This document shows positions 1,667 to 64,000 of a DNA stretch of 64,000 nt, one piece after another; position 1 is the first letter of the stretch, and the number at the start of each line of letters is the position of its first letter. This DNA comes from Eledone cirrhosa (taxonomy: Eukaryota). A model generated the notes under the pieces. That model was not told the DNA's origin and did no database searches. It worked only from the letters and a program-made list of their open reading frames with translations. The position numbers and the translations under genes were made by a program. The stretch spans positions 274,102,001-274,166,000 of the forward strand of contig OZ024743.1 in the NCBI GenBank assembly GCA_964016885.1, written 5' to 3'.

Positions 1667-3001
1667 CTATTGGGGTGATAACCCGTTTAGTTTTGGTTTA
1701 AATTTGTTAAGGAATAGATTTTCTTTGTTTATTCTTTGTTGTTGTGTGAACGAATCTGAGCACTTGTAGAAGGGGAAGATTTTAAAGTTGGGTAGTGTCA
1801 TTCCTGCGCAGTTCGCAATATGGCTGCTCAAGGGGATTTTTCTTGTGTTAGCGTCCCGGATTTGTTGGCGGTGGATGGTCATTCTTTTGCGTAATGAGGT
1901 GCCCGTCTGTCCTATGTAGTTGTGTTTGCACCCACCGCAAGTTATTGCGTAAATCAAGTTCTCCGAGTTGCAGGTGAAATTGTTTTTTACTGTAAATGTT
2001 TGGCCATCTTTGAATGTAAATGTTTGTCCTTCAGTGAGGTAGAGGCACGTTCCACAGTTTGTTCTACCACATTTGGTAACTGTAGGGTTGAGGATTGGTT
2101 TGGGTATATTTGGTCCAGTGAGAATGCGTTTAAGTGATTTGGGTTGTCTTTTACTTTTAAGGATCTTGTGTGTTTCAAGAATAGACTTCATTTTTACATC
2201 TTTAAGTAGGATGGGGAGGTTTTTGTGTAGGTGATCAAACATTTCGGTATTTCTGGGGTTGAAAGTGGATACATATGGCAGGGTGTTGAGTGTGGTTTTC
2301 TGTTTTGGATTGTTAAGTTGATGGGGATTTAGGTGTTTTGCCCTGTCTATTCCATTGTTGATTATTTCAAGTGGAAAGGCTCTTAAGATAAGGGTGTCTT
2401 TTAGTTCCTTTAGTCTTTGCTCCCGTTTAGGTGGATCTGATACTATGGTACATATACGTTTGGCCAAATTGTAAGGAATGTTAAGTTTTGTATGTTTTGG
2501 GTGACTTGATGTGAAAAAGAGGTATTGCTTGGAATCTGTGGGTTTATAGAATATATCTGTATCTAATTTCCCGTCTATTACAGAGATGAGAATATCCAAG
2601 AAGGCTAATTCCTTAGGATTGGATTCCATTGTGAATTGTATGTTATTATCTATGTTGTTTATCATGTTTTTAAACGTAGTAAGTGAGTTCATGTCTTCTT
2701 GCCATAGGATAAAGCAGTCGTCTAGATATCTTTTCCAATTGGCTTTGAGGTGTGTGTGGAAAGAGTCTCCAAATAAGAGAAGGGACTGACTGTATATTTG
2801 TTGTTCATGGAATCCCATGACTAGGTTGGCATATGTGGGTGCTACTTTCGTGCCCATTGCCGTACCTGATACTTGTCTGTATGTTGAACCATTGAATGTG
2901 AAGTAGTTATTTTGTAGGATAAAGCGGAGTCCGTCAGTGATAAAATCTGTGTTGATGCGTGTCGGTATTTCTGATGGGTGTGTGTTAAGCCACAGACCCA
3001 T
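1667..3001 (-). CDS. PLE reverse transcriptase (C-terminal half) + Cys-rich linker + GIY-YIG endonuclease, 5'-truncated
   Basis: GTAMG..APTYANL, YLDD, FLD, DIFYKPT RT motifs; KCGRTNCGTC linker (Neptune-like); NLIYAITC..YIGQT..R..H GIY-YIG. The ATG comes from the inverted arm, so it is not the native start. Confidence 0.9.
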   Translation of the reverse strand: MGLWLNTHPSEIPTRINTDFITDGLRFILQNNYFTFNGSTYRQVSGTAMGTKVAPTYANLVMGFHEQQIYSQSLLLFGDSFHTHLKANWKRYLDDCFILWQEDMNSLTTFKNMINNIDNNIQFTMESNPKELAFLDILISVIDGKLDTDIFYKPTDSKQYLFFTSSHPKHTKLNIPYNLAKRICTIVSDPPKREQRLKELKDTLILRAFPLEIINNGIDRAKHLNPHQLNNPKQKTTLNTLPYVSTFNPRNTEMFDHLHKNLPILLKDVKMKSILETHKILKSKRQPKSLKRILTGPNIPKPILNPTVTKCGRTNCGTCLYLTEGQTFTFKDGQTFTVKNNFTCNSENLIYAITCGGCKHNYIGQTGTSLRKRMTIHRQQIRDANTRKIPLSSHIANCAGMTLPNFKIFPFYKCSDSFTQQQRINKENLFLNKFKPKLNGLSPQ

Positions 3002-3153
3002 CGAAACCGGTCATTTTTTATACCCTTTATTATTTCCTTACCTTATAAAATTATGTTTTTTCACAAAAAAGTATTCTGTCTCTTATATATTCCATGTGCC
3101 ATTACCAACCTCAATTTTCTCTATAACCTTCGTTTTGTGTAGAAAATTACACT

Positions 3154-16255: not shown

Positions 16256-16647
<392 letters not shown>

Positions 16648-16650
16648 GTA

Positions 16651-20146
<3,496 letters not shown>

Positions 20147-20161
20147 CATATATATAGATAG

Positions 20162-20221
<60 letters not shown>

Positions 20222-20224
<3 letters not shown>

Positions 20225-20508
20225 AATATTTTCGAAACACCAAGTGGATTTGAAATTATTAGAAATGTAAGCTATTGCCGTATTTTGACTAAAGAAATTA
20301 AAGAAATTATTTAGCCTGATAGTGGGGTTAAGAACCCTCGGCGTAAATGGTAGCACAGTGGTCCGGATAACCAAAGATGTGGGTTCGCGTCCCATGTACG
20401 TCAATACTCATCATTTTCCATTTCTCCGAGGTTTCTTAAACCCACTATAAGGCTAAATAATTTGTTTAGTTTCTTTAGTCAAAATACGGCGATAGCTTAC
20501 ATTTCTAA

Positions 20509-20512
<4 letters not shown>
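20222..20512 (+). mobile_element. tRNA-headed element with inverted 3' arm (copy 1)
   Basis: tRNA-like head 20340-20403 (A box, B box ggttcgcgtcc) between about 87-bp inverted arms; left arm 32 nt longer; TA flanks. Confidence 0.75.
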
Positions 20513-20543
<31 letters not shown>

Positions 20544-20544
20544 T

Positions 20545-20582
<38 letters not shown>

Positions 20583-20588
20583 TATACT

Positions 20589-20686
<98 letters not shown>

Positions 20687-20703
20687 CATACATATATATA
20701 TAT

Positions 20704-21098
20704 AAGAATATTTTCGAAACACCAAGTGGATTTGAAATTATTAGAAATGTAAGCTATCGCCGTATTTTTACTAAAGAAATTAAAGAAATTATTTAGCCTG
20801 ATAGTGGGGTTAAGAACCCTCGGCGTAAATGGTAGTACAGTGGTCCGGATAACCAAAGATGTGGGTTGGCCTCCCATGTACGTCAATACTTATCTGTTTC
20901 CATTTCTCCGAGAGTTATGTGTTGGTGTAAATGGTAGCACAGTGGTCCGGATAACCAAAGATGTGGGTTGGCCTCCCATGTACGTCAATACTCATCTTTT
21001 TCCATTTCTCCGAGGGTTCTTAACCCCACTATAAGACTAAATAATTTCTTTAATTTCTTTAGTCAAAATACGGCGATAGCTTACATTTCTAATAATTA
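20704..21098 (+). mobile_element. tRNA-headed element with inverted 3' arm (copy 2, duplicated head)
   Basis: Same arms as copy 1; heads at about 20822-20885 and 20916-20987, the second folding as a full cloverleaf; a 3' fragment recurs at 53441-53553. Confidence 0.75.
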
Positions 21099-21162
21099 TA
21101 TATATATATGTAAGTAAGTTAAATGTTTTTTTAATTTTTTTAAAAAATTTTCTTATTTTACG

Positions 21163-33200: not shown

Positions 33201-33434
33201 ATTATTATTATTATTATTATTGAATGCCATGGTTGACGGAGGCTCGGCTCTGTAAGGTATAGTAATTTTTAACCGTTAAAACAATTGTAAATTGTTTAAA
33301 ACTTGAACCAAATTGTTGATAAAGACACCCTCCTCCTCGTGAGAGGGGTCTTTCTGTCCGTTATTTGGCCCTTCGGGGTTAAATAACCAGTTATTGGGGT
33401 TTTGTACCCAAAATTTCATTTTAAACAAAAAAAC

Positions 33435-35522
33435 ATGGCTACGAAAAAGAAATTTCATACGTCACTCCCACTCATTCCGTCTTCTTCTTCCTCAATCATC
33501 ACTACAGCAGAGAGAAGATTGTCTCTCTCCCTCCCTTCTTTAAATGTGTCTCTCTCCCTCCCTTCTCTTTCGCAAGCGACGAAAGAAAAGAAAAGTCTCG
33601 TGCAAAGCGTGCAAGGTTTCTCTACGACGACGACGACAGCGACGAAACAGGTGTGCGGGAAATACGAAAACCCAGTTCATTCGTCTGACGTCAGGAATAA
33701 TAGCAGTAGCAGCCGTAATAACAACAGCAACAGTGACAATGAAAACAACAGTAGCAGCCGCAACAGCATCACCAGCAGCATAAACAACAACAGCATTAGC
33801 AGCAGCAACACCAACAACAACCACAGCAACAGCGGCGGAGGCAGTAGTCGTAGTACCTGCAGCAACAACAAAAGTACCAGCAGCTCTGACGACAACAACA
33901 ACAGCAGAGAAAAACCAATCTCATTTGCAGGTATTGCGAAAAACTTGGAAACAATCCTCATAACAAATGAGGAATTAGAGGAAGCGAAGAAGATGGTGAC
34001 AAAGAACGGACACCGAGCAATCTGCAAGGCAGCGAAAAATTTTTTCGAAACCCAAGAGCACTGTACGGTCACGTACCGTACAGTAAGTACAAAATCCCGT
34101 AGGGTGGAAAGAGCCACAGAGGCCCAAATACAAAAAGCCTTGGGGTCTGTGTGGCAGAGGAAAACGCACATCACCCGAGGCAAAAAATACGCCACCGTAG
34201 ACGTACTTTTTGCCACACCCCAGGAGGCAAAGGCCCAATCAGTAGTGACCCTAAGGAGCGAGGAAATGGTGTTGGTGCCCTCCTACTGCGGGCAAAAAAT
34301 TGTGAGGGTCAAACTAACCCACGTCCCCCCCGGAATGACCCCTTCTTGGCTGGCCGCGTCTGTCCTCGTCGGAATCGAGGACAAAACAACTGTACTGCAA
34401 GTACAGAAAAAAGTAAGAGAAGATTGGGTCGGCTCCTCCATTGAGATGCTAATCCAAACCAACCAGGAGTGCATCGAAGCTATCCCGGATGTGATAGACT
34501 TCGATAACGGCACTCAACTGCCCATAAGTGTTGAGGGCAAACGCCCGAAATGCTTTCGCTGTGGATCGAAGACTCACCTCAGGGCCTTCTGCAACGAGAA
34601 GACCCTGAGAAAGGAGAAAACCCCCCTCCTTCCGAATCCGGCTCCACGGCTACCAGCAACAGGACAAGCGGCAACCAGGAACGATAGGTCCGTGGCACCC
34701 ATACCCACTCCACGGAAATCAAAGACAGCAGCAGCAGTGGAAATATTAACAACAACAACAGCAATACCAAATGCAGCTGCAACAGAGACTCCAGTGCAAA
34801 CATCACCAACAACAACAAGTGAAAGAGTGGAGCTGGTACCCCTCCCCGACCTTACAGAATCAGACATGGAGTGTGAGGTGGGAGAGGGATGGCAAAAGGT
34901 CGCAAGAAGGCACAAACGCAGAAGCAGCGCATCGTCGCCTTTGAAAAGGGAGGAAAGAAATGAGAAAAGGGTAAAGTCTACTGCAAAGAGACCCACAGCA
35001 GCAACACCACCAACACCATCACCACCCACACCAGCACCACCATCACCACCGGCGACAACTCCACCGCCAACAACACCTTCAACACAAGCACCAACATCGC
35101 AAACACAACAACAAAACACACACACCCAGCAACAACGACAAGAAAATAGCAGAACCACACCCCACCCCCATAAAAACAAATGCACGGCAATAAATACACA
35201 CAACAAGAAACTAATGACTTACATAATTGAACACACAGACATTTCACAACAGGACTACATAATACCAGCACCAATCAAAACGCCAACTAACATAAGACTG
35301 CTAAAAATAGCACAGAAACAATACACAAATATTAAAACGAAATTCCCCAACGCAGTTGGTGATTTCAGGGACCTAGGAGGAACCATCAATCGAAGAGTAT
35401 ACTCAGACATTCTCTTAGAAGAGCCGACGACCAGCCGAAGGGACGATTCAACGGTCCCTTCACCAGACGATCAAGTGAAAAGGGATGTAAAAACCATCCC
35501 TCCTCTACCAAAAGTACGGTAA
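33435..35522 (+). CDS. LINE ORF1 protein (gag-like, single CCHC zinc knuckle)
   Basis: First ATG at 33435; CFRCGSKTHLRAFC knuckle; S/N-rich N-terminus and P/T-rich C-terminus; directly upstream of ORF2. Confidence 0.85.
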   Translation: MATKKKFHTSLPLIPSSSSSIITTAERRLSLSLPSLNVSLSLPSLSQATKEKKSLVQSVQGFSTTTTTATKQVCGKYENPVHSSDVRNNSSSSRNNNSNSDNENNSSSRNSITSSINNNSISSSNTNNNHSNSGGGSSRSTCSNNKSTSSSDDNNNSREKPISFAGIAKNLETILITNEELEEAKKMVTKNGHRAICKAAKNFFETQEHCTVTYRTVSTKSRRVERATEAQIQKALGSVWQRKTHITRGKKYATVDVLFATPQEAKAQSVVTLRSEEMVLVPSYCGQKIVRVKLTHVPPGMTPSWLAASVLVGIEDKTTVLQVQKKVREDWVGSSIEMLIQTNQECIEAIPDVIDFDNGTQLPISVEGKRPKCFRCGSKTHLRAFCNEKTLRKEKTPLLPNPAPRLPATGQAATRNDRSVAPIPTPRKSKTAAAVEILTTTTAIPNAAATETPVQTSPTTTSERVELVPLPDLTESDMECEVGEGWQKVARRHKRRSSASSPLKREERNEKRVKSTAKRPTAATPPTPSPPTPAPPSPPATTPPPTTPSTQAPTSQTQQQNTHTQQQRQENSRTTPHPHKNKCTAINTHNKKLMTYIIEHTDISQQDYIIPAPIKTPTNIRLLKIAQKQYTNIKTKFPNAVGDFRDLGGTINRRVYSDILLEEPTTSRRDDSTVPSPDDQVKRDVKTIPPLPKVR

Positions 35523-35557
35523 GTGGTCTTTCCCATCTTTTCCACTCTATTTTAAAC

Positions 35558-38500
35558 ATGACCTCACTCAGAATAGGCAGCATAAATGCGCGTGGCTTGG
35601 GGTCGTCATGGAAGCAGGGTCACCTGCTCAACGACCTCAGGTCACTAAACATAGATGTAGTGGCCATCAGCGAGACCAGAATCTCCGAGGCACGGGCCTT
35701 CGCACCGATCTTCGGCGGCTACGATGTGTACGCATCTCCCAGCCGTCCTGGATCCGGTGGAGGAGTTGCTGTGCTTTTTCGGAGAGGTTTGGATCTCGCC
35801 ATACGGGCCATCTTCCTGGACCCAGAGGGTAAGCTGGTGGTGCTGGACGTGACCAGCGGAGACGGGCAAGCTTTCAGGCTAGTGGCCGTCTATGCCCCGA
35901 CAGGAGCAGGGCGGCCTGATTTCTTCCGGCGTCTGGAGACCTTTCTTGGAACGTCCCGCTCTTTAGTGTTAGTGGGCGACTGGAACGGGATCTTAGATGC
36001 ACGCTGGGACTGTGTGGGATTAGCGGATAGGGGTGGAGGGTGCAAGAGCCTCACCAACCTGCTCAGGCGTTTTGAACTGTCTGACAGGTACCGATTGGAT
36101 TTCCCGAATGTGCCAATGTGGACTTGGACAAACCGCATAGGGTCATCCAGATCATATCTAGATAGAGTATTTTGTAGGGAAATAGATAGGTCTAGCATAG
36201 GCTGTCCACAATTCAAGATAGTCAGCTACACGGACCACAAATTCGTGACCTGTGTGCTTGACTTAGATAGGCTTCATAGACGAGGACCCGGCTACTGGAA
36301 GCTAAACGCGTCCTTACCAGCGCGCAAGGCCTACAGAGACCGGATTAGCGAACTAGTTAAGCGGGCGTTGACGGGGGCCATCGTCAACAACAAGTGGTGG
36401 TTTGCTCTGAAAAGAGCAATTAGAATAGAGTCCATTAGGTTTAGTAAGACTTTAGCAATAGAGAAAAATAGAGCAGAGGGAGAATTAGTTAGAAAATTAG
36501 ACGAGGCGCTTAGCAAAAGCATTGCGACCGACGTGCTTGCGGCGAAATTGGCCCTTGACCAATTCTTCAATGCAAAGCACGAAGGCTGCGTTGTCAGAGC
36601 AAGGGTGCGTGCTCTCAGACACGAGGGGACGAAAGCCGTTCAATGGGCCCGAGTGGCGGAGGCGCGTCGTGGCAACAAAGCCACGATCCGGTCTTTGGTG
36701 GACCACGACGGGCGCATGCTACTCGATCCCGGGCAAATGTGTGAAGCTTTTCAGCGACACTTCGCTCAGCTGTTCGGGGGCAGCGGTGGGCCGGGTAGAG
36801 GGATGGACTTTAGTGTCTACCTCGACGGACTGCCGCGGCTCTCGGCCACTGAGGCGAAGTGTTGCGAAAAGCCGATAACAGCCGCTGAAGTAAGGGAGGC
36901 AATGACTGGCTGCACAAGGGGTAAATCGCCTGGTTTGGATGGTCTGCCCTATGAACTTTACGTACAGATGCCAGACTTGTTCGGAGGCCTCTTGGCGGAC
37001 GTCTACTGCAACTGGCAACAGAACGGGAGAATTCCCAGTTCTGTGAGCCGAGGAGCGGTGGCACTGCTGAGAAAGTATCCGAACAAGGGGGATAACATAG
37101 ACAATTTCCGGCCCATAACTCTGCTAAACACAGAGTTTAAGATTTTGGCCAAGGTGCTAGCAAAGAGGTTGGCGCTTGTCGTTGGTGGTCTGGTGGGAGA
37201 GGCGCAGACATGCGCCATTCCCGACAGATCCATCCACGACAACCTCCACCTCATGCGATACATCGTAGAGAGGGTAGCTAGGGAACCTGGCACGGGTGGG
37301 TCCTTGATCAATTTAGATCAGTCGAAAGCTTTCGATAGGGTCGACCATCGTTACCTAGCGGCAGTCCTGAGGGCGGCTGGCTTTGGGCCCGTCTTCAGAG
37401 GCTGGATCGCTGCCATGCACAGCGACATCTGCTCTGTGGTGAGAGTGAACGGTCACCTGTCGGAACCGTTCAACATCATGCGCTCGGTCCGCCAAGGATG
37501 TCCCCTCTCGTCCCTCTTGTACGTATTGACTCTCGAGCCATTACTGCACAAACTGGAGACGTTGAGGGGAGTCCCGCGCGAACTAGGATGCGGAAGATCC
37601 GTGTCAGCATATGCGGACGATGTCACCGTAGTGGTGTCGAACGCCAAACACATCGAGGCGATCGGCACTACACTAAGAGAATACGAAGCGGTGACAGGAG
37701 CAATGATCAACCAGGAAAAGTCAGTGGGCCTGCAGCTCGGCACCTGGAGAGGCAGGTCCATGCCGTCCAACAGCGTCGTCGGGCGCTGGACGGACGGACC
37801 GGTTAAATTGCTAGGGGTCTGGTTCGGTCCGGACCTCCAGACGGACAAAAACTGGGACGAGGTGACGAGCAGGGTGGCTTCTCTCACCCAGAAATGGGCG
37901 GAGAGGAAGCTATCCCTGAAAGGTCGAGCGGAGGTGGCTAACGCGTACATCGCGTCTGTCATCTGCTACCGCCTAACCGTCGTACCTTGTCCTAAGCCTC
38001 GCCTGACTGCGCTGGAGCGTTTGCTCTTTCGCTTTTTGTGGAAGGGACGCGCTCCGATGGTCAGGCGGTCCATCTGTTGTCAACACCCGCTACGTGGAGG
38101 GCTGGGCATGCCGTGGCTGATGATGCGCAGGCACGCGCTCAGGCTACGACATCTCCACCTCTTCCTCGACGGTGATCAGGTGTGGTCGCCGTTTGCTAGA
38201 CGCGTTTTTCCCCAGCTCGTTTCCTTGACGGAGCTGCAGTCCTGGGTCAAGCGAAGACCGAGAGGGAGCGCCTGGAGACTGGAATGTCTTCAGGCGCTCA
38301 CAGCCCTCGACCAATCGGGCAATGTGATCGGTGGAAACTCCACCTCGGCGTTCTATAGAGGATTAGTGGAGGGGAAGAGCGACGACGTACTTGGGGAAAC
38401 TCTAGGCGTCGACGAAAATCAACTAGCCAATCTCTTCGGAAGAACTTTCGGGCCAGGGCCTATGGACAACTTCCTGAAATCTCTGGCCTGGCAGTGCTAC

Positions 38501-38977
38501 CGAGGAGCCTTGCCAGTTCGGGATAAACTCTACAGGCATGGAGGTGCCGTCAGCCGGGTATGTCCGAGATGCGCGCAGGGCGACGAAACCGTCCTGCACG
38601 CACTCGTCCAGTGTCCGAAAATTGCTGACTTGTGGGTTTATGTCGAACACCTGCTGTCGCGTTTAGGACGGATCCAGCTATCATCTGAGTCCATCGTGAG
38701 GATTGCCCCGCCCTCCTCCTTTAGCCGGGAAGGGCAGGCAGTTTTTATCTGTCTGGTGGCCATGGCGAAAGAGATAGTATGGTGGACACGTTTGAAAGGG
38801 CTGAAGACGAGCACTTACCTCTTCGGTGATGCTCTGATTGACTTTTTCAAATTTCATTTGAAAAGGAAAATCAGAGTAGAGAGGGAAGTGCTCTCTTCCC
38901 AGCATTTTGTTGAAAGATGGGTGAGAGAAGCAAGAATGGCCCGAGTGAATGGGCCGACTCTGAGTATATATCTGTAA
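35558..38977 (+). CDS. LINE ORF2: AP endonuclease + reverse transcriptase + C-terminal zinc finger (1139 aa)
   Basis: SINARGL, ISET, VYAP, GDWN, YLDRV, TDH (APE); KSPGLDG, FRPITLLN, DQSKAFDRV, RQGCPLS, AYADD (RT); CPRC..ETVLHALVQC. Confidence 0.97.
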   Translation: MTSLRIGSINARGLGSSWKQGHLLNDLRSLNIDVVAISETRISEARAFAPIFGGYDVYASPSRPGSGGGVAVLFRRGLDLAIRAIFLDPEGKLVVLDVTSGDGQAFRLVAVYAPTGAGRPDFFRRLETFLGTSRSLVLVGDWNGILDARWDCVGLADRGGGCKSLTNLLRRFELSDRYRLDFPNVPMWTWTNRIGSSRSYLDRVFCREIDRSSIGCPQFKIVSYTDHKFVTCVLDLDRLHRRGPGYWKLNASLPARKAYRDRISELVKRALTGAIVNNKWWFALKRAIRIESIRFSKTLAIEKNRAEGELVRKLDEALSKSIATDVLAAKLALDQFFNAKHEGCVVRARVRALRHEGTKAVQWARVAEARRGNKATIRSLVDHDGRMLLDPGQMCEAFQRHFAQLFGGSGGPGRGMDFSVYLDGLPRLSATEAKCCEKPITAAEVREAMTGCTRGKSPGLDGLPYELYVQMPDLFGGLLADVYCNWQQNGRIPSSVSRGAVALLRKYPNKGDNIDNFRPITLLNTEFKILAKVLAKRLALVVGGLVGEAQTCAIPDRSIHDNLHLMRYIVERVAREPGTGGSLINLDQSKAFDRVDHRYLAAVLRAAGFGPVFRGWIAAMHSDICSVVRVNGHLSEPFNIMRSVRQGCPLSSLLYVLTLEPLLHKLETLRGVPRELGCGRSVSAYADDVTVVVSNAKHIEAIGTTLREYEAVTGAMINQEKSVGLQLGTWRGRSMPSNSVVGRWTDGPVKLLGVWFGPDLQTDKNWDEVTSRVASLTQKWAERKLSLKGRAEVANAYIASVICYRLTVVPCPKPRLTALERLLFRFLWKGRAPMVRRSICCQHPLRGGLGMPWLMMRRHALRLRHLHLFLDGDQVWSPFARRVFPQLVSLTELQSWVKRRPRGSAWRLECLQALTALDQSGNVIGGNSTSAFYRGLVEGKSDDVLGETLGVDENQLANLFGRTFGPGPMDNFLKSLAWQCYRGALPVRDKLYRHGGAVSRVCPRCAQGDETVLHALVQCPKIADLWVYVEHLLSRLGRIQLSSESIVRIAPPSSFSREGQAVFICLVAMAKEIVWWTRLKGLKTSTYLFGDALIDFFKFHLKRKIRVEREVLSSQHFVERWVREARMARVNGPTLSIYL

Positions 38978-40802: not shown

Positions 40803-40807
<5 letters not shown>

Positions 40808-42373
40808 GACAAACATAGAATATTCGAAAATATTCTGTATGTTTATAATAAACATTTTGAAGACCCAATCGCTATAGAATAGAATACGTCACGTATTACA
40901 ATTTGAGATTCTCGATAAAAGCAAGGGAAGTAACCTACGCGTTTCATTCTTATTAGAAATCATCAGGATTACATATCCAAAGCTTTTATCGAGAACGACA
41001 CAGCTAGAGACTTATAGAATACTTAGCTGTGTACAGGAACTGGTTTGAAAGAGCGGTTGCCGGTCCGGCAGAAATTAGAATTTGGATTTAATGCTCTGAA
41101 ATAGCGATATATATGTGAAGACAAACATAGAATATTCGAAAATATTCTGTATGTTTATAATAAACATTTTGAAGACCCAATCGCTATAGAATAGAATACG
41201 TCACGTATTACAATTTGAGATTCTCGATAAAAGCAAGGGAAGTAACCTACGCGTTTCATTCTTATTAGAAATCATCAGGATTACATATCCAAAGCTTTTA
41301 TCGAGAACGACACATCTAGAGACTTATAGAATACTTAGCTGTGTACAGGAACTGGTTTGAAAGAGCGGTTGCCGGTCCGGCAGAAATTAGAATTTGGATT
41401 TAATGCTCTGAAATAGCGATATATATGTGAAGACAAACATAGAATATTCGAAAATATTCTGTATGTTTATAATAAACATTTTGAAGACCCAATCGCTATA
41501 GAATAGAATACGTCACGTATTACAATTTGAGATTCTCGATAAAAGCAAGGGAAGTAACCTACGCGTTTCATTCTTATTAGAAATCATCAGGATTACATAT
41601 CCAAAGCTTTTATCGAGAACGACACAGCTAGAGACTTATAGAATACTTAGCTGTGTACAGGAACTGGTTTGAAAGAGCGGTAGCCGGTCCGGCAGAAATT
41701 AGAATTTGGATTTAATGCTCTGAAATAGCGATATTTATGTGAAGACAAACATAGAATATTCGAAAATATTCTGTATGTTTATAATAAACATTTTGAAGAC
41801 CCAATCACTAGAGAATAGAATACGTCACGTATCGTTCTCGATAAAAGCTTTGGATACGTAATCCTGATGATTTCTAATAAGAATGAAACGCGTAGGTTAC
41901 TTCCCTTGCTTTTATCGAGAATCTCAAATTGTAATACGTGATGTATTCTATTCTATAGCGATTGGGTCTTCAAAATGTTTATTATAAACATACAGAATAT
42001 TTTCGAATATTCTATGTTTGTCTTCACATATATATCGCTATTTCAGAGCATTAAATCCAAATTCTAATTTCTGCCGGACCGGCTACCGCTCTTTCAAACC
42101 AGTTCCTGTACACAGCTAAGTATTCTATAAGTCTCTAGCTTTGTCGTTCTCGATAAAAGCTTTGGATATGTAATCCTGATGATTTCTAATAAGAATGAAA
42201 CGCGTAGGTTACTTCCCTTGCTTTTATCGAGAATCTCAAATTGTAATACGTGACGTATTCTATTCTATAGCGATTGGGTTTTCAAAATGTTTATTATAAA
42301 CATACAGAATATTTTCGAATATTCTATGTTTGTCTTCACATATATATCGCTATTTCAGAGCATTAAATCCAAA
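40803..42373. repeat. 312-bp tandem array (about 3.3 units minus + about 1.7 units plus), retrozyme-like
   Basis: gaagacaaac at 40805, 41117, 41429, 41741; orientation flips at about 41832; TA flanks; one hammerhead per complete unit. Confidence 0.92.
41858..41900 (+). ncRNA. Type I hammerhead ribozyme of the 312-bp unit (also 42170-42212 plus; 40930-40972, 41242-41284, 41554-41596 minus)
   Basis: guaauc-CUGAUGA-u-uucu(aaua)agaa-u-GAAACGCGUA-gguuac: 6-bp stem I, palindromic ACGCGU stem III, GUA site. Confidence 0.85.
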
Positions 42374-42394
42374 TATATATATATATATATATAT

Positions 42395-42837
42395 GCAAAA
42401 GTTTTATTTAAAATTGTTGGGTTACAACAAGTAAATATTTTATAACTGATATAAAACACTCGACAAGTTTTGGAGTAGATATACGATATTAAACAAATGG
42501 AAACTATATTTATAAAACTATATTTATTTCATTATACATATTTCGGGGATACCATATTAAAAATATGGCATGCCTTCTTCAGATAAAATACAATATATAA
42601 ACAGTTTTATAAATAATTTTGACGTACCATAAATATTGAGCAACCGTTATGTAAGAAAACCGGCTTCTTACATAACGGTTGATCAATATTTATGGTACGT
42701 CAAAATTATTTATAAAACTGTTTATATATTGTATTTTATCTGAAGAAGGCGTGCCATATTTTTAATATGGTATCCCCGAAATATGTATAATGAAATAAAT
42801 ATGGTTTTATAAATATAGTTTCCATTTGTTTAATATC

Positions 42838-42840
<3 letters not shown>
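42395..42840. mobile_element. Near-perfect 360-bp palindrome with a hammerhead-like motif in each arm
   Basis: 42481-42840 symmetric about 42660; CUGAAGA (42740)-long hairpin-GAAAUAUGUA; left extension about 85 nt; relative at 48125-48345. Confidence 0.75.
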
Positions 42841-42900
<60 letters not shown>

Positions 42901-48357: not shown

Positions 48358-52643
<4,286 letters not shown>

Positions 52644-53334: not shown

Positions 53335-53577
53335 ATATAGATGAGATTCTACTTTTATACTCTGTTATGTATTGAGTACCTTACTTACTATGGTTACCTC
53401 CGATTCAACCCGGAATAACGTACCTATATATATATATATACGTCAATAGTCATCTTTTTCCATTTCTCCGAGGGTTCTTAACCCCACTATCAGGCTAAAT
53501 AATTTCTTTAATTTCTTTAGTCAAAATACGGCGATAGCTAACATTTCTAATAATATATATATAAATATATATATATA

Positions 53578-55505
53578 AAAAAAAATAACGAAACGAAATT
53601 AAATTTCGTTTCGTTTGTAACTCACTTTTGTATGACTGACGCTTAAACAATTAAGTTAAAAATGTACATCCACATATGTATACTGAAATACTAGTATGCA
53701 TATGAATACACACACGTATACATATGTAGATGTACCGAGTTTTTCACTGGTCACTTTACTGTGAGTGTCCAGCTATTCTGTATGTAAACACACAGACAAA
53801 CCGGTTTTTAGAGTCATACTGGTTTTTGAGGAAACACCTTTCCTCTATTCTCCAGACAGCCAGACAAGGAATATTGAACTAGTTTCGATGTTGTTACATC
53901 TCATCAGCAATATTTACCTATCTTCCGGCCTCTCTAGAGAATCGTAAAAGCACATATCGTTATATGCTTTTTCTATGAAAATTAGTAGTGGGCAGACTAA
54001 TTTGCATAGAGCGTGAGTACGTACCGGTTCAACGGAGACGATAAAAACAAATAACGAAACGAAATTAAATTTCGTTTCGTTTGTAACTCACTTTTGTATG
54101 ACTGACGCTTAAACAATTAAGTTAAAAATGTACATCCACATATGTATACTGAAATACTAGTATGCATATGAATACACACACGTATACATATGTAGATGTA
54201 CCGAGTTTTTCACTGGTCACTTTACTGTGAGTGTCCAGCTATTCTGTATGTAAACACACAGACAAACCGGTTTTTAGAGTCATACTGGTTTTTGAGGAAA
54301 CACCTTTCCTCTATTCTCCAGAAAGCCAGACAAGGAATATTGAACTAGTTTCGATGTTGTTACATCTCATCAGCAATATTTACCGATCTTCCGGCCTCTC
54401 TAGAGAATCGTAAAAGCACATATCGTTATATGCTTTTTCTATGAAAATTAGTAGTGGGCAGACTAATTTGCATAGAGCGTGAGTACGTACCGGTTCAACG
54501 GAGACGATAAAAACAAATAACGAAACGAAATTAAATTTCGTTTCGTTTGTAACTCACTTTTGTATGACTGACGCTTAAACAATTAAGTTAAAAATGTACA
54601 TCCACATATGTATACTGAAATACTAGTATGCATATGAATACACACACGTATACATATGTAGATGTACCGAGTTTTTCACTGGTCACTTTACTGTGAGTGT
54701 CCAGCTATTCTGTATGTAAACACACAGACAAACCGGTTTTTAGAGTCGTACTGGTTTTTGAGGAAACACCTTTCCTCTATTCTCCAGAAAACCAGACAAG
54801 GAATATTGAACTAGTTTCGATGTTGTTACATCTCATCAGCAATATTTACCTATCTTCCGGCCTCTCTAGAGAATCGTAAAAGCACATATCGTTATATGCT
54901 GTGTGTTTACATACAGAATAGCTGGACACTCACAGTAAAGTGACCAGTGAAAAACTCGGTACATCTACATATGTATACGTGTGTGTATTCATATGCATAC
55001 TAGTATTTCAGTATACATATGTGGATGTACATTTTTAACTTAATTGTTTAAGCGTCAGTCATACAAAAGTGAGTTACAAACGAAACGAAATTTAATTTCG
55101 TTTCGTTATTTGTTTTTATCGTCTCCGTTGAACCGGTACGTACTCACGCTCTATGCAAATTAGTCTGCCCACTACTAATTTTCATAGAAAAAGGATATAA
55201 CGATATGTGCTTTTACGATTCTCTAGAGAGGCCGGAAGATAGGTAAATATTGCTGATGAGATGTAACAACATCGAAACTAGTTCAATATTCCTTGTCTGG
55301 CTTTCTGGAGAATAGAGGAAAGGTGTTTCCTCAAAAACCAGTACGACTCTAAAAACCGGTTTGTCTGTGTGTTTACATACAGAATAGCTGGACACTCACA
55401 GTAAAGTGACCAGTGAAAAACTCGGTACATCTACATATGTAAACATGTGTGTATTCATATGCATACTAGTATTTCAGTATACATATGTGGATGTACATTT
55501 TTAAC

Positions 55506-55511
<6 letters not shown>
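53578..55511. repeat. 466-bp tandem array (about 2.8 units minus + about 1.3 units plus), retrozyme-like
   Basis: Period 466 (repeated ORFs at 53765, 54231, 54697); flip at about 54899; TA flanks; one hammerhead per unit. Confidence 0.92.
55247..55289 (+). ncRNA. Type I hammerhead ribozyme of the 466-bp unit (also 53871-53913, 54337-54379, 54803-54845 minus)
   Basis: auauug-CUGAUGA-gaugu(aaca)acauc-GAAACUAGUU-caauau: perfect stems I and II, palindromic stem III, GUU site. Confidence 0.88.
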
Positions 55512-55591
<80 letters not shown>

Positions 55592-62807: not shown

Positions 62808-64000
62808 GGTGTATGTAAAAGGTAAACAAAAATAACAACACAATCGGTAGAATATATGGAAGGGATATATTAGGTTAACGCTTGATATAGCAGAAAGAGG
62901 GTCTTAACGTGTCGGACGATAGTCCTTCACCAGAAGAAAGAATGAGAAATAAAATAGATTGAGTGGACGGGCGGGTTGGAATTGAAAAAAAATGTCTTTA
63001 GATAAAAAATAACAGGTCCATCCATGTTGACATCTCTTGAAAAACTGTTGGTGCTAGAGTTTTGTGTATGATTTATTTTTTTAGAAAATGTAAGTACGAA
63101 GCTATGAGCAAAAGTATGTTAATATAAGGGTGTGTATGTGAATGGCAGTGGAGAGAAAAGTGGAGTGAGTGAGCATATATAGTCGGCCTGTATTAGTTGT
63201 AAGAGAAGATGTTAATGAACAAGAGAAAGCGATTGATAGGAATATAGGGGTGTAACAATGGATGGGTTATTAGAGAAATTGGGAGGTGAGTTGAGTCCAA
63301 GAGAGGAATAGGACCCAAGGTGGTGAATCAGACTTTGTTCAGTTCTGGTGCGTGAGGCCTGTGATCCATGATGTAAAAGGACACCCCGGACTGAAACATG
63401 TAGGGAAGAATGACCAGGAGAACAGAAATGACGGGAGACAGGAGTATCCAAACCGAGTCGTATGTCCCTCAAATGCTCGGCAAAACGGTCCGCCATACGG
63501 TGTCCCGTTTGTCCGATATATAAAGACCCACAAAGGGAACATGGGAGGGCATAGACAACGCGGGTGGATGTGCAGGTGAACGAGTGGCGGATACGGAAAG
63601 ACCCGTTAGGGCCTGTAAGAGTGGTGAGGGCGGAAATGAAGGGACAAGTGTTGCAGTGGAAACGGGAACAAGGATGAAAGCCGGATGGAGTCGTGGGAGA
63701 GGACAAGAAGGAACTGCGAGCTAGGAGGTTGCGGGCGTGATTTTAATGGGTGCGTTTGGAAAATAGCGAAGCGAGAAGTGACTGGGTCAGAAGAGAGGAT
63801 ATGGAAGGAACGGAGGATATGTCGCCGGAGTGATAGGCTGACTGGTGGGGCGGTAGGTGAGAGAGGAAAGGAACGCAGGTGTTGGGAGGGCGGGGTGAGG
63901 TGAGAGGGCTGTGGTGCGGTCTATTTCACGGGCGCTGGTGAGAGCAGCTTGGATCAGGGCGGGGGGATATCCAGGCTGGATGAAGCATATCTATACATAT
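62750..64000 (-). mobile_element. PLE 3' portion (GIY-YIG at 63212-63706 and pLTR with mutated hammerhead at 62902-62937), runs off the window
   Basis: PCSRFHCNTC linker, FTC.S..VVY..C..C..LYIGQTG..RF.EH; hammerhead core mutated to CUGGUGA/GACAC. Confidence 0.85.

Follow-up and report, generated by a model that had tools for sequence, protein, structure and literature searches.

A tRNA-headed tandem-monomer repeat with the insertion footprint of Penelope-like elements in the genome of Eledone cirrhosa

SINEs are classified by their LINE partner and, to our knowledge, this classification has no slot for a Penelope-like element (PLE) as partner. PLE insertions are described in the available text of PMC8557442 as having a tail of 30–40 bp, occurring as tandem and inverted copies and showing a bias for (TA)n. 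In vitro, the tail proved to be the stretch between two internal start sites of the reverse transcriptase (RT), both target strands being cut and extended (PMC11167929). The repeat described here resembles autonomous EN+ PLEs such as Poseidon PAc (PMC11167929) and Naiad (PMC8557442), as the accessible parts of these sources present them, in the 30–40-nt tail on one end, the (TA)n bias and the tandem and inverted structure but, unlike them, it has no ORF. Naiads, in the same part of PMC8557442, also resemble it in having no hammerhead.

Closer in size are the non-LTR retrozymes and other non-autonomous PLEs. Hammerhead retrozymes have been proposed to be non-autonomous PLEs (available sections of PMC7229834 and bioRxiv 10.64898/2026.07.22.740005) and these elements, with MRC1 (PMC8557442), resemble our repeat in that their tandem monomers are short and non-coding, their insertions are tandem and inverted in the manner of PLEs, and mobilisation by PLEs is proposed. 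By definition, however, a retrozyme carries a type I hammerhead in each unit, according to the same sections, whereas the repeat has none and carries a tRNA-like domain instead. It also differs from retrozymes and non-autonomous PLEs in that a comparison with 50 GIY-YIG loci revealed no homology to an autonomous pLTR and that most copies are shorter than one monomer. The nearest precedent is the hammerhead-bearing Sm-alpha of Schistosoma (PMC6765202, PMC8490949, in the parts available), a SINE-like tandem element apparently transcribed by Pol III. Like our repeat, Sm-alpha and Sj-alpha are SINE-like and need tandem copies to propagate; in Sm-alpha a hammerhead frees the monomers, and the accessible part of PMC6765202 describes neither a PLE tail footprint nor a partner for it.

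Two further groups are related by their promoters. Cassandra, Helenus and Ajax (TRIMp3), as far as the available text of PMC10886601 and PMC7215508 goes, carry a small-RNA-derived Pol III promoter inside a terminal repeat (5S with a terminator in Cassandra, tRNA-like in Helenus), have terminally redundant transcripts, form tandem arrays and need no sequence homology to their partner, all of which recalls the repeat described here; they differ in being of the LTR type, with PBS/PPT and with partners of the Copia/Gypsy kind, whereas its ends are of the PLE type. The two direct LTRs with fixed ends around an internal domain that mark TRIMp3 are absent from the repeat, whose arms are inverted with two alternative ends. 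The tRNA-derived SINEs (SINE2) share with the repeat a tRNA head with A and B boxes, a length below 300 nt, thousands of copies and a class of 5′ ends at the start of the head. Compared with SINE2, the repeat has no LINE-like or poly(A) tail, its 3′ ends lie at two internal sites, its unit runs head to tail with a spacer upstream of the head, and inverted duplication is frequent.

The window, that is, the whole 64-kb stretch of contig OZ024743.1 which was analysed, holds two adjacent copies at 20222–20513 and 20704–21097, both in (TA)n and both composed of an inverted arm to which a direct arm is joined. Monomer positions are counted from the first tRNA base, m1. The inverted arm of copy 1 (20222–20341, minus strand) covers m95–m215 and reaches a 'long' 3′ site, its tail extension (20222–20253, minus strand; m183–m215) spanning the interval between two 3′ end sites, and the direct arm (20343–20513, plus strand; m12–m182), with a 5′-truncated tRNA and a mutated B box, stops at the 'short' site. 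In copy 2, the inverted arm (20704–20823, minus strand; m95–m215, including the tail at 20704–20735) is followed on the plus strand by a first partial unit (20825–20915; m12–m102), which passes through 2–3 nt of microhomology to a restart at the tRNA start. There then follow, all on the plus strand, the 72-nt tRNA-like domain (20916–20987), with an A box at 20923–20934, a B box at 20966–20976 carrying two mutations and a non-canonical anticodon loop, the trailer (20990–21007) with a conserved T5 at 20997–21001, and the 3′ body up to the 'short' end site at m182 (21008–21097). A (TA)n tract (20514–20703) separates the copies and others lie at 19993–20221 and 21098–21110. The preliminary description had reported an inverted 3′ body upstream, a left-arm extension of 32 nt, flanks of (TA)n and no poly(A), all of which the sequence bears out.

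Both copies fall within a tandem repeat of period 482 (TRF). Since they have in common the m95|m12 junction and the private variants m57, m118, m188, m194 and m196, they are a single local duplication, as had been suspected, of one B-box-damaged insertion, which is probably dead. B-box mutations occur in both, and both are without the spacer of about 50 nt which separates tail and tRNA in head-to-tail multimers outside the window. A third copy (53436–53554, plus strand) is a headless single arm of about m63–m181 within (TA)n and exemplifies the main 5′ stop described below.

The element first reported is real, and its unit, as seen in these multimers, is larger than described: a head-to-tail monomer of 260–271 nt made up of the tRNA-like domain (m1–72), a T5 in the trailer (m82–86), the body, the tail (about m182–223) and the spacer leading back to the tRNA. 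A copy count had been suggested for the 3′ body; genome-wide, a tail motif gave 3,560 exact matches and an exact 26-mer 1,431, and reversed controls gave none. Sixty evenly spaced 10-kb stretches of the 3.0-Gb genome contained two family loci, which indicates a family of some thousands to ten thousand loci. Within it, four subfamily groups can be distinguished, A (271 nt), B1, B2 and C (about 260 nt), whose copies are mostly 90–99% like their own consensus. Folding of the whole monomer is unremarkable (z −1.35 as a linear molecule, −0.9 to −2.6 as a circle). One locus (L171), similar in appearance to a tRNA gene cluster, is a satellite-like array in which at least 12 diverged tandem units of the tRNA-headed family extend for more than 3 kb.

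The insertion footprint was analysed in 145 loci. The first 100 listed 26-mer matches gave 82 loci, of which 81 were counted, the long diverged array L171 being set aside; duplicate loci and the window itself were likewise left out before counting. A second sample comprised 64 tail-anchored loci. Among 147 aligned arm pieces in the 81 loci, 110 had a microsatellite end; 52 of these ends lie at m160–185, 50 at m208–229 and eight elsewhere, so that 102 of the 110 fall at two sites about 35 nt apart. The same two 3′ end clusters recur in the tail-anchored loci. Inverted structures were observed in 55 of the 81 loci; in 36 of these a short end is paired with a long one (extension 31–60 nt, median about 43), and an arm longer than one monomer occurs in 41. 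Both inverted arms are 5′-truncated and each ends in the 3′ region. The targets are microsatellite or AT-rich, target-site duplications not being readable inside (TA)n, and the 3′ ends are internal sites of a continuing monomer with no LINE-derived, poly(A) or simple-repeat tail. The polarity of the extension, which the preliminary description had equated with that of the coding PLEs in the window, is not fixed, since it lies on the left arm in 19 and on the right arm in 17 of the 36 asymmetric loci.

A hammerhead-bearing family served as control. Its 312-nt monomer, present in the window in tandem and inverted arms in (TA)n (40805–42375), has 595 exact motif matches genome-wide and arms of up to about seven units. 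In 13 loci examined, the same footprint was found in nine of the 11 that are inverted, with ends at h141 and h165–170 and with scattered 5′ ends. The two-site inverted footprint is that of the Penelope tail, matched by this control family. Mobilisation of the PLE type is strongly supported by the architecture of the 145 loci and of the control, and the footprint in (TA)n makes it very probable that the repeat is copied in trans by a PLE protein with RT and GIY-YIG activities. The window also holds a 466-nt hammerhead monomer, tandem and inverted, of the same architecture (53575–55512), short hammerhead-type fragments or 3′ ends, some inverted (16460–16650, 24141, 42430–42850 and 53340–53425), broken PLE coding fragments (1667–3010, 49807–51377 and 63212–63742) and a two-ORF LINE-like element with an open frame of 1,204 aa (33387–38977).

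An alternative is that the repeat is an ordinary SINE driven by a LINE, with 5′ inversions, or else a MITE with a captured tRNA. The near-palindromes centred at m62–70 in about 20 of the 64 tail-anchored loci look MITE-like, and LINEs occur nearby. However, a 3′ end on both arms, at two different fixed sites and with neither poly(A) nor repeat tail, fits neither; the palindromic centre recurs separately in A, B1 and B2, other centres vary widely, and the multimers have an exact spacer junction. We regard this explanation as very improbable. A MITE as such was rejected on the asymmetric ends, the variable centres and the absence of symmetric fixed termini or a fixed centre. The preliminary description had held that an identical centre in all copies would speak for a MITE; junctions vary while the outer ends lie at two fixed sites, and this objection fails.

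GIY-YIG candidates are abundant in the genome (10,595), some with long open frames. When the monomer was compared with 50 of these loci (30 with PF01541 and 20 with longer frames), no match was obtained (best z 1.9), and a 22-nt resemblance to the 3′ UTR of one GIY-YIG family was no better than in shuffled sequences. A PLE sharing the 3′ end of the element, the search for which had been proposed at the outset, appeared neither among these 50 loci nor among 198 family loci, in none of which was RT/EN coding sequence joined 5′ of a shared 3′ end. RT/EN matches lie near nine of the 198, with direct abutment at L058 alone (1621–2011), where a short 3′ end and a 5′-truncated PLE endonuclease fragment stand in the same orientation, 3 nt apart and with no (TA)n between them; this junction may reflect template switching or mere chance proximity. 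Three loci (L320–L322) carry PLE open frames of 844–1096 aa with RT and C-terminal GIY-YIG, some lengthened upstream by simple repeats, and no canonical hammerhead within 1.5 kb downstream. They are candidate active PLE families.

The cloverleaf recognised at 20916–20987 is borne out by alignment to positions 1–71 of the Rfam tRNA model. Mutation of the B box in the window copy keeps the score, 24.7 bits, under the gathering threshold of 29, and ARAGORN calls the domain at a relaxed threshold only; consensus-like or intact copies elsewhere score 36–55.6 bits against RF00005 (seven matches in four loci) and another 42.4 bits. The non-canonical anticodon loop indicates that the domain is not a translating tRNA. 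Among consensuses of monomers collected with a tRNA-based anchor, which more diverged heads would escape, the tRNA differs by 1–2 substitutions, all in the anticodon loop, and one D-loop indel, apart from which the A and B boxes are invariant, compared with 26–34 differences in 146 positions (18–23%) outside it (Fisher p 0.011, 0.004 and 0.0002, using m1–53 only, search-anchored bases left out). The four commonest recurrent stem variants (m43, m262, m263 and m267) preserve or restore pairing; no two-sided compensatory change was found among stem variants, and a recurrent G>T at m22 (12 copies) disrupts a D-stem pair.

The isotype of the source tRNA was sought among 16 RF00005 matches listed, which were Thr genes and unrelated repeats, none like the head by eye. 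L205 and L207 are tandem clusters of tRNA-Thr genes and pseudogenes on C1. L206 and L208–L216 belong to a separate repeat of more than 1.5 kb with a near-perfect tRNA (53–72 bits, near position 1500), whose anticodon varies between copies and which lies about 320 nt inside an end starting with a short hairpin; we take this repeat to be possibly Helitron/Helentron-like.

The 5′ ends pile up at two places. Within the tail-anchored set, 43 of the 56 arms reaching m72 stop at m56–72, inside the 3′ strand of the tRNA, a 12.9-fold excess over background for a window picked after inspection of the data. Most of these stops are at a four-base palindrome and yield the headless near-palindromes of several subfamilies. 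Palindromes alone were rejected as the cause, since 13 of the 16 four-base palindromes of the monomer lie outside m56–72, none with a comparable pile-up, and single arms also stop there; for m1A58 as a possible cause, no excess of misincorporation at A58 was seen (6/132, p 0.11). The tRNA start is reached by only nine of 88 tail-anchored arms, about 90% being headless. The second pile-up was observed in the 81 loci: 20 of the 80 arms that reach the tRNA start stop at m−6 to +5, a window suggested by the earlier loci L002–L030 (4.4-fold, p 7e-8), against one of 60 in the next 24 nt. It was not significant in the tail-anchored set (2/9, p 0.27). Several arms extend by 2–6 templated nt upstream of +1, as would be expected of initiation by Pol III more than of cleavage by RNase P, and 75% of the arms at the tRNA start continue upstream.

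The tRNA might be a passenger, left by an old SINE or tRNA insertion in a PLE-mobilised pLTR-like monomer which host read-through transcribes; the predominance of headless arms and the T5, which blocks a simple Pol III route, would then be expected, and PLEs without hammerhead exist (available text of PMC8557442). However, no other part of the monomer is as well conserved between subfamilies as the tRNA, even though it is the chief obstacle to full-length copying, and if neutral it should have decayed. As 5′ ends also cluster at its start, we find the passenger explanation improbable.

No hammerhead core is present on the sense strand of the four subfamily consensuses, Rfam matches the tRNA only, and a relic hammerhead near m170–190 was rejected as not conserved among subfamilies. 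In multimers, leader and trailer are predicted to form an 18–20-bp helix prolonging the acceptor stem past a 3-nt bulge, and in two sister families a hammerhead stands at the tip of a similar predicted helix. Tandem units share rare variants 21-fold more than unrelated loci and as often as opposite arms do (12 per 7,356 nt, compared with 11 per 144,647 and 23 per 14,733, respectively), a pattern that fits either repeated copying of a single monomer or a source array that is homogeneous.

RNase P and RNase Z ends are not RtcB substrates. The fold could replace the hammerhead as a processing signal, read-through multimers of a PLE-mobilised element being cut into monomers or circles by RNase P/Z of the host or by some other nuclease that acts on tRNAs. 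The tRNA lies at the tip of a long predicted helix, the position of the hammerhead in the two sister families, its stems and variable loop are conserved beyond the A and B boxes, the leader helix could form only in multimeric or circular RNA, and the variants common to tandem units agree with such a route. Yet RNase P would remove the templated nucleotides kept upstream of +1, the main stop lies within the tRNA when RNase Z would give m73, the ends, as noted, would not suit RtcB, and more than one monomer is present in only four of the 64 tail-anchored loci as against 10 of the 13 control loci. We think processing unlikely to be the principal role, less so than the passenger explanation.

The reading that we prefer, by a modest degree, is a non-coding tandem monomer with a tRNA-like domain and a PLE footprint, copied in trans by a PLE RT/GIY-YIG protein from RNA that is likely made by Pol III. 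Tandem loci would be the sources. Pol III would start 0–4 nt before one tRNA, pass the first T5 and terminate at the T5 after the next tRNA, a step that we hold rather probable; the RNA would be terminally redundant, after the logic of Cassandra with its 5S (PMC10886601, PMC7215508). Both strands of the target would be nicked by the PLE protein, its synthesis would begin at internal positions of the RNA, about m181 and m217, and the two arms would be joined head-to-head at microhomology. Most cDNAs would stall in the folded T-arm and acceptor (m56–72) and give headless dead copies, some would get to the 5′ end of the RNA, and the remainder would enter another unit, by a strand jump, a circle or a longer transcript, so regenerating tandem sources. 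Against this model, the T5 right after the tRNA, with a T4 in subfamilies B and C, would be expected to terminate the majority of Pol III transcripts, and runs of T4 or more are not depleted in the monomer relative to shuffled sequences. The 75% of arms that read on upstream also count against it, as a simple Pol III monomer cannot template them. The T5 and this read-on are the main difficulties of the Pol III step, and processing by tRNA nucleases is a live rival.

The element is real and works like a non-LTR retrozyme or non-autonomous PLE without the hammerhead; it has the head of a SINE without the tail. The preliminary description of a SINE mobilised by a PLE stands for the mobilisation, which the sampled loci and the control strongly support. 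The SINE label is only partly apt: the element is built of tandem monomers like those of retrozymes or non-autonomous PLEs, few of its arms reach the tRNA start and a conserved T5 follows its tRNA. It had also been thought that the pairing was not a described one; no ribozyme-free case of tRNA and PLE was found, but Sm-alpha and the retrozymes, both with hammerheads, are near precedents in the accessible sources. A full-text search of openly accessible literature listed no tRNA-headed, hammerhead-free PLE dependant, nor is one described in the available parts of PMC4209133, PMC13282606 and PMC6685494. The family may already have been deposited, for instance in Repbase or Dfam, as a SINE or unknown repeat.

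With its thousands of copies, this short repeat probably exploits Penelope elements, and not LINEs, as a SINE-like parasite. We hold it an even proposition that it represents, besides SINE/LINE and TRIMp3/LTR, a third class of parasite headed by a small RNA. Such an element would be a tRNA mimic without ribozyme that rides Penelope enzymes. Its tRNA domain would take over from the hammerhead by providing promoter, terminator and terminal redundancy, or else a site for cutting by a host nuclease, and its tandem sources would be regenerated in each cycle. The PLE reaction is poorly understood, and a 270-nt element with mapped start and stop sites offers a minimal substrate of natural origin for its study; thousands of copies record two initiation sites, the joining of two arms and RT stalls. 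The role of the hammerhead in PLE-type elements becomes testable through a sister family with a tRNA fold in the same position. Among the 'unclassified SINEs' and MITE-like palindromes of animal genomes rich in (TA)n, we predict, there are some PLE products that have been misfiled.
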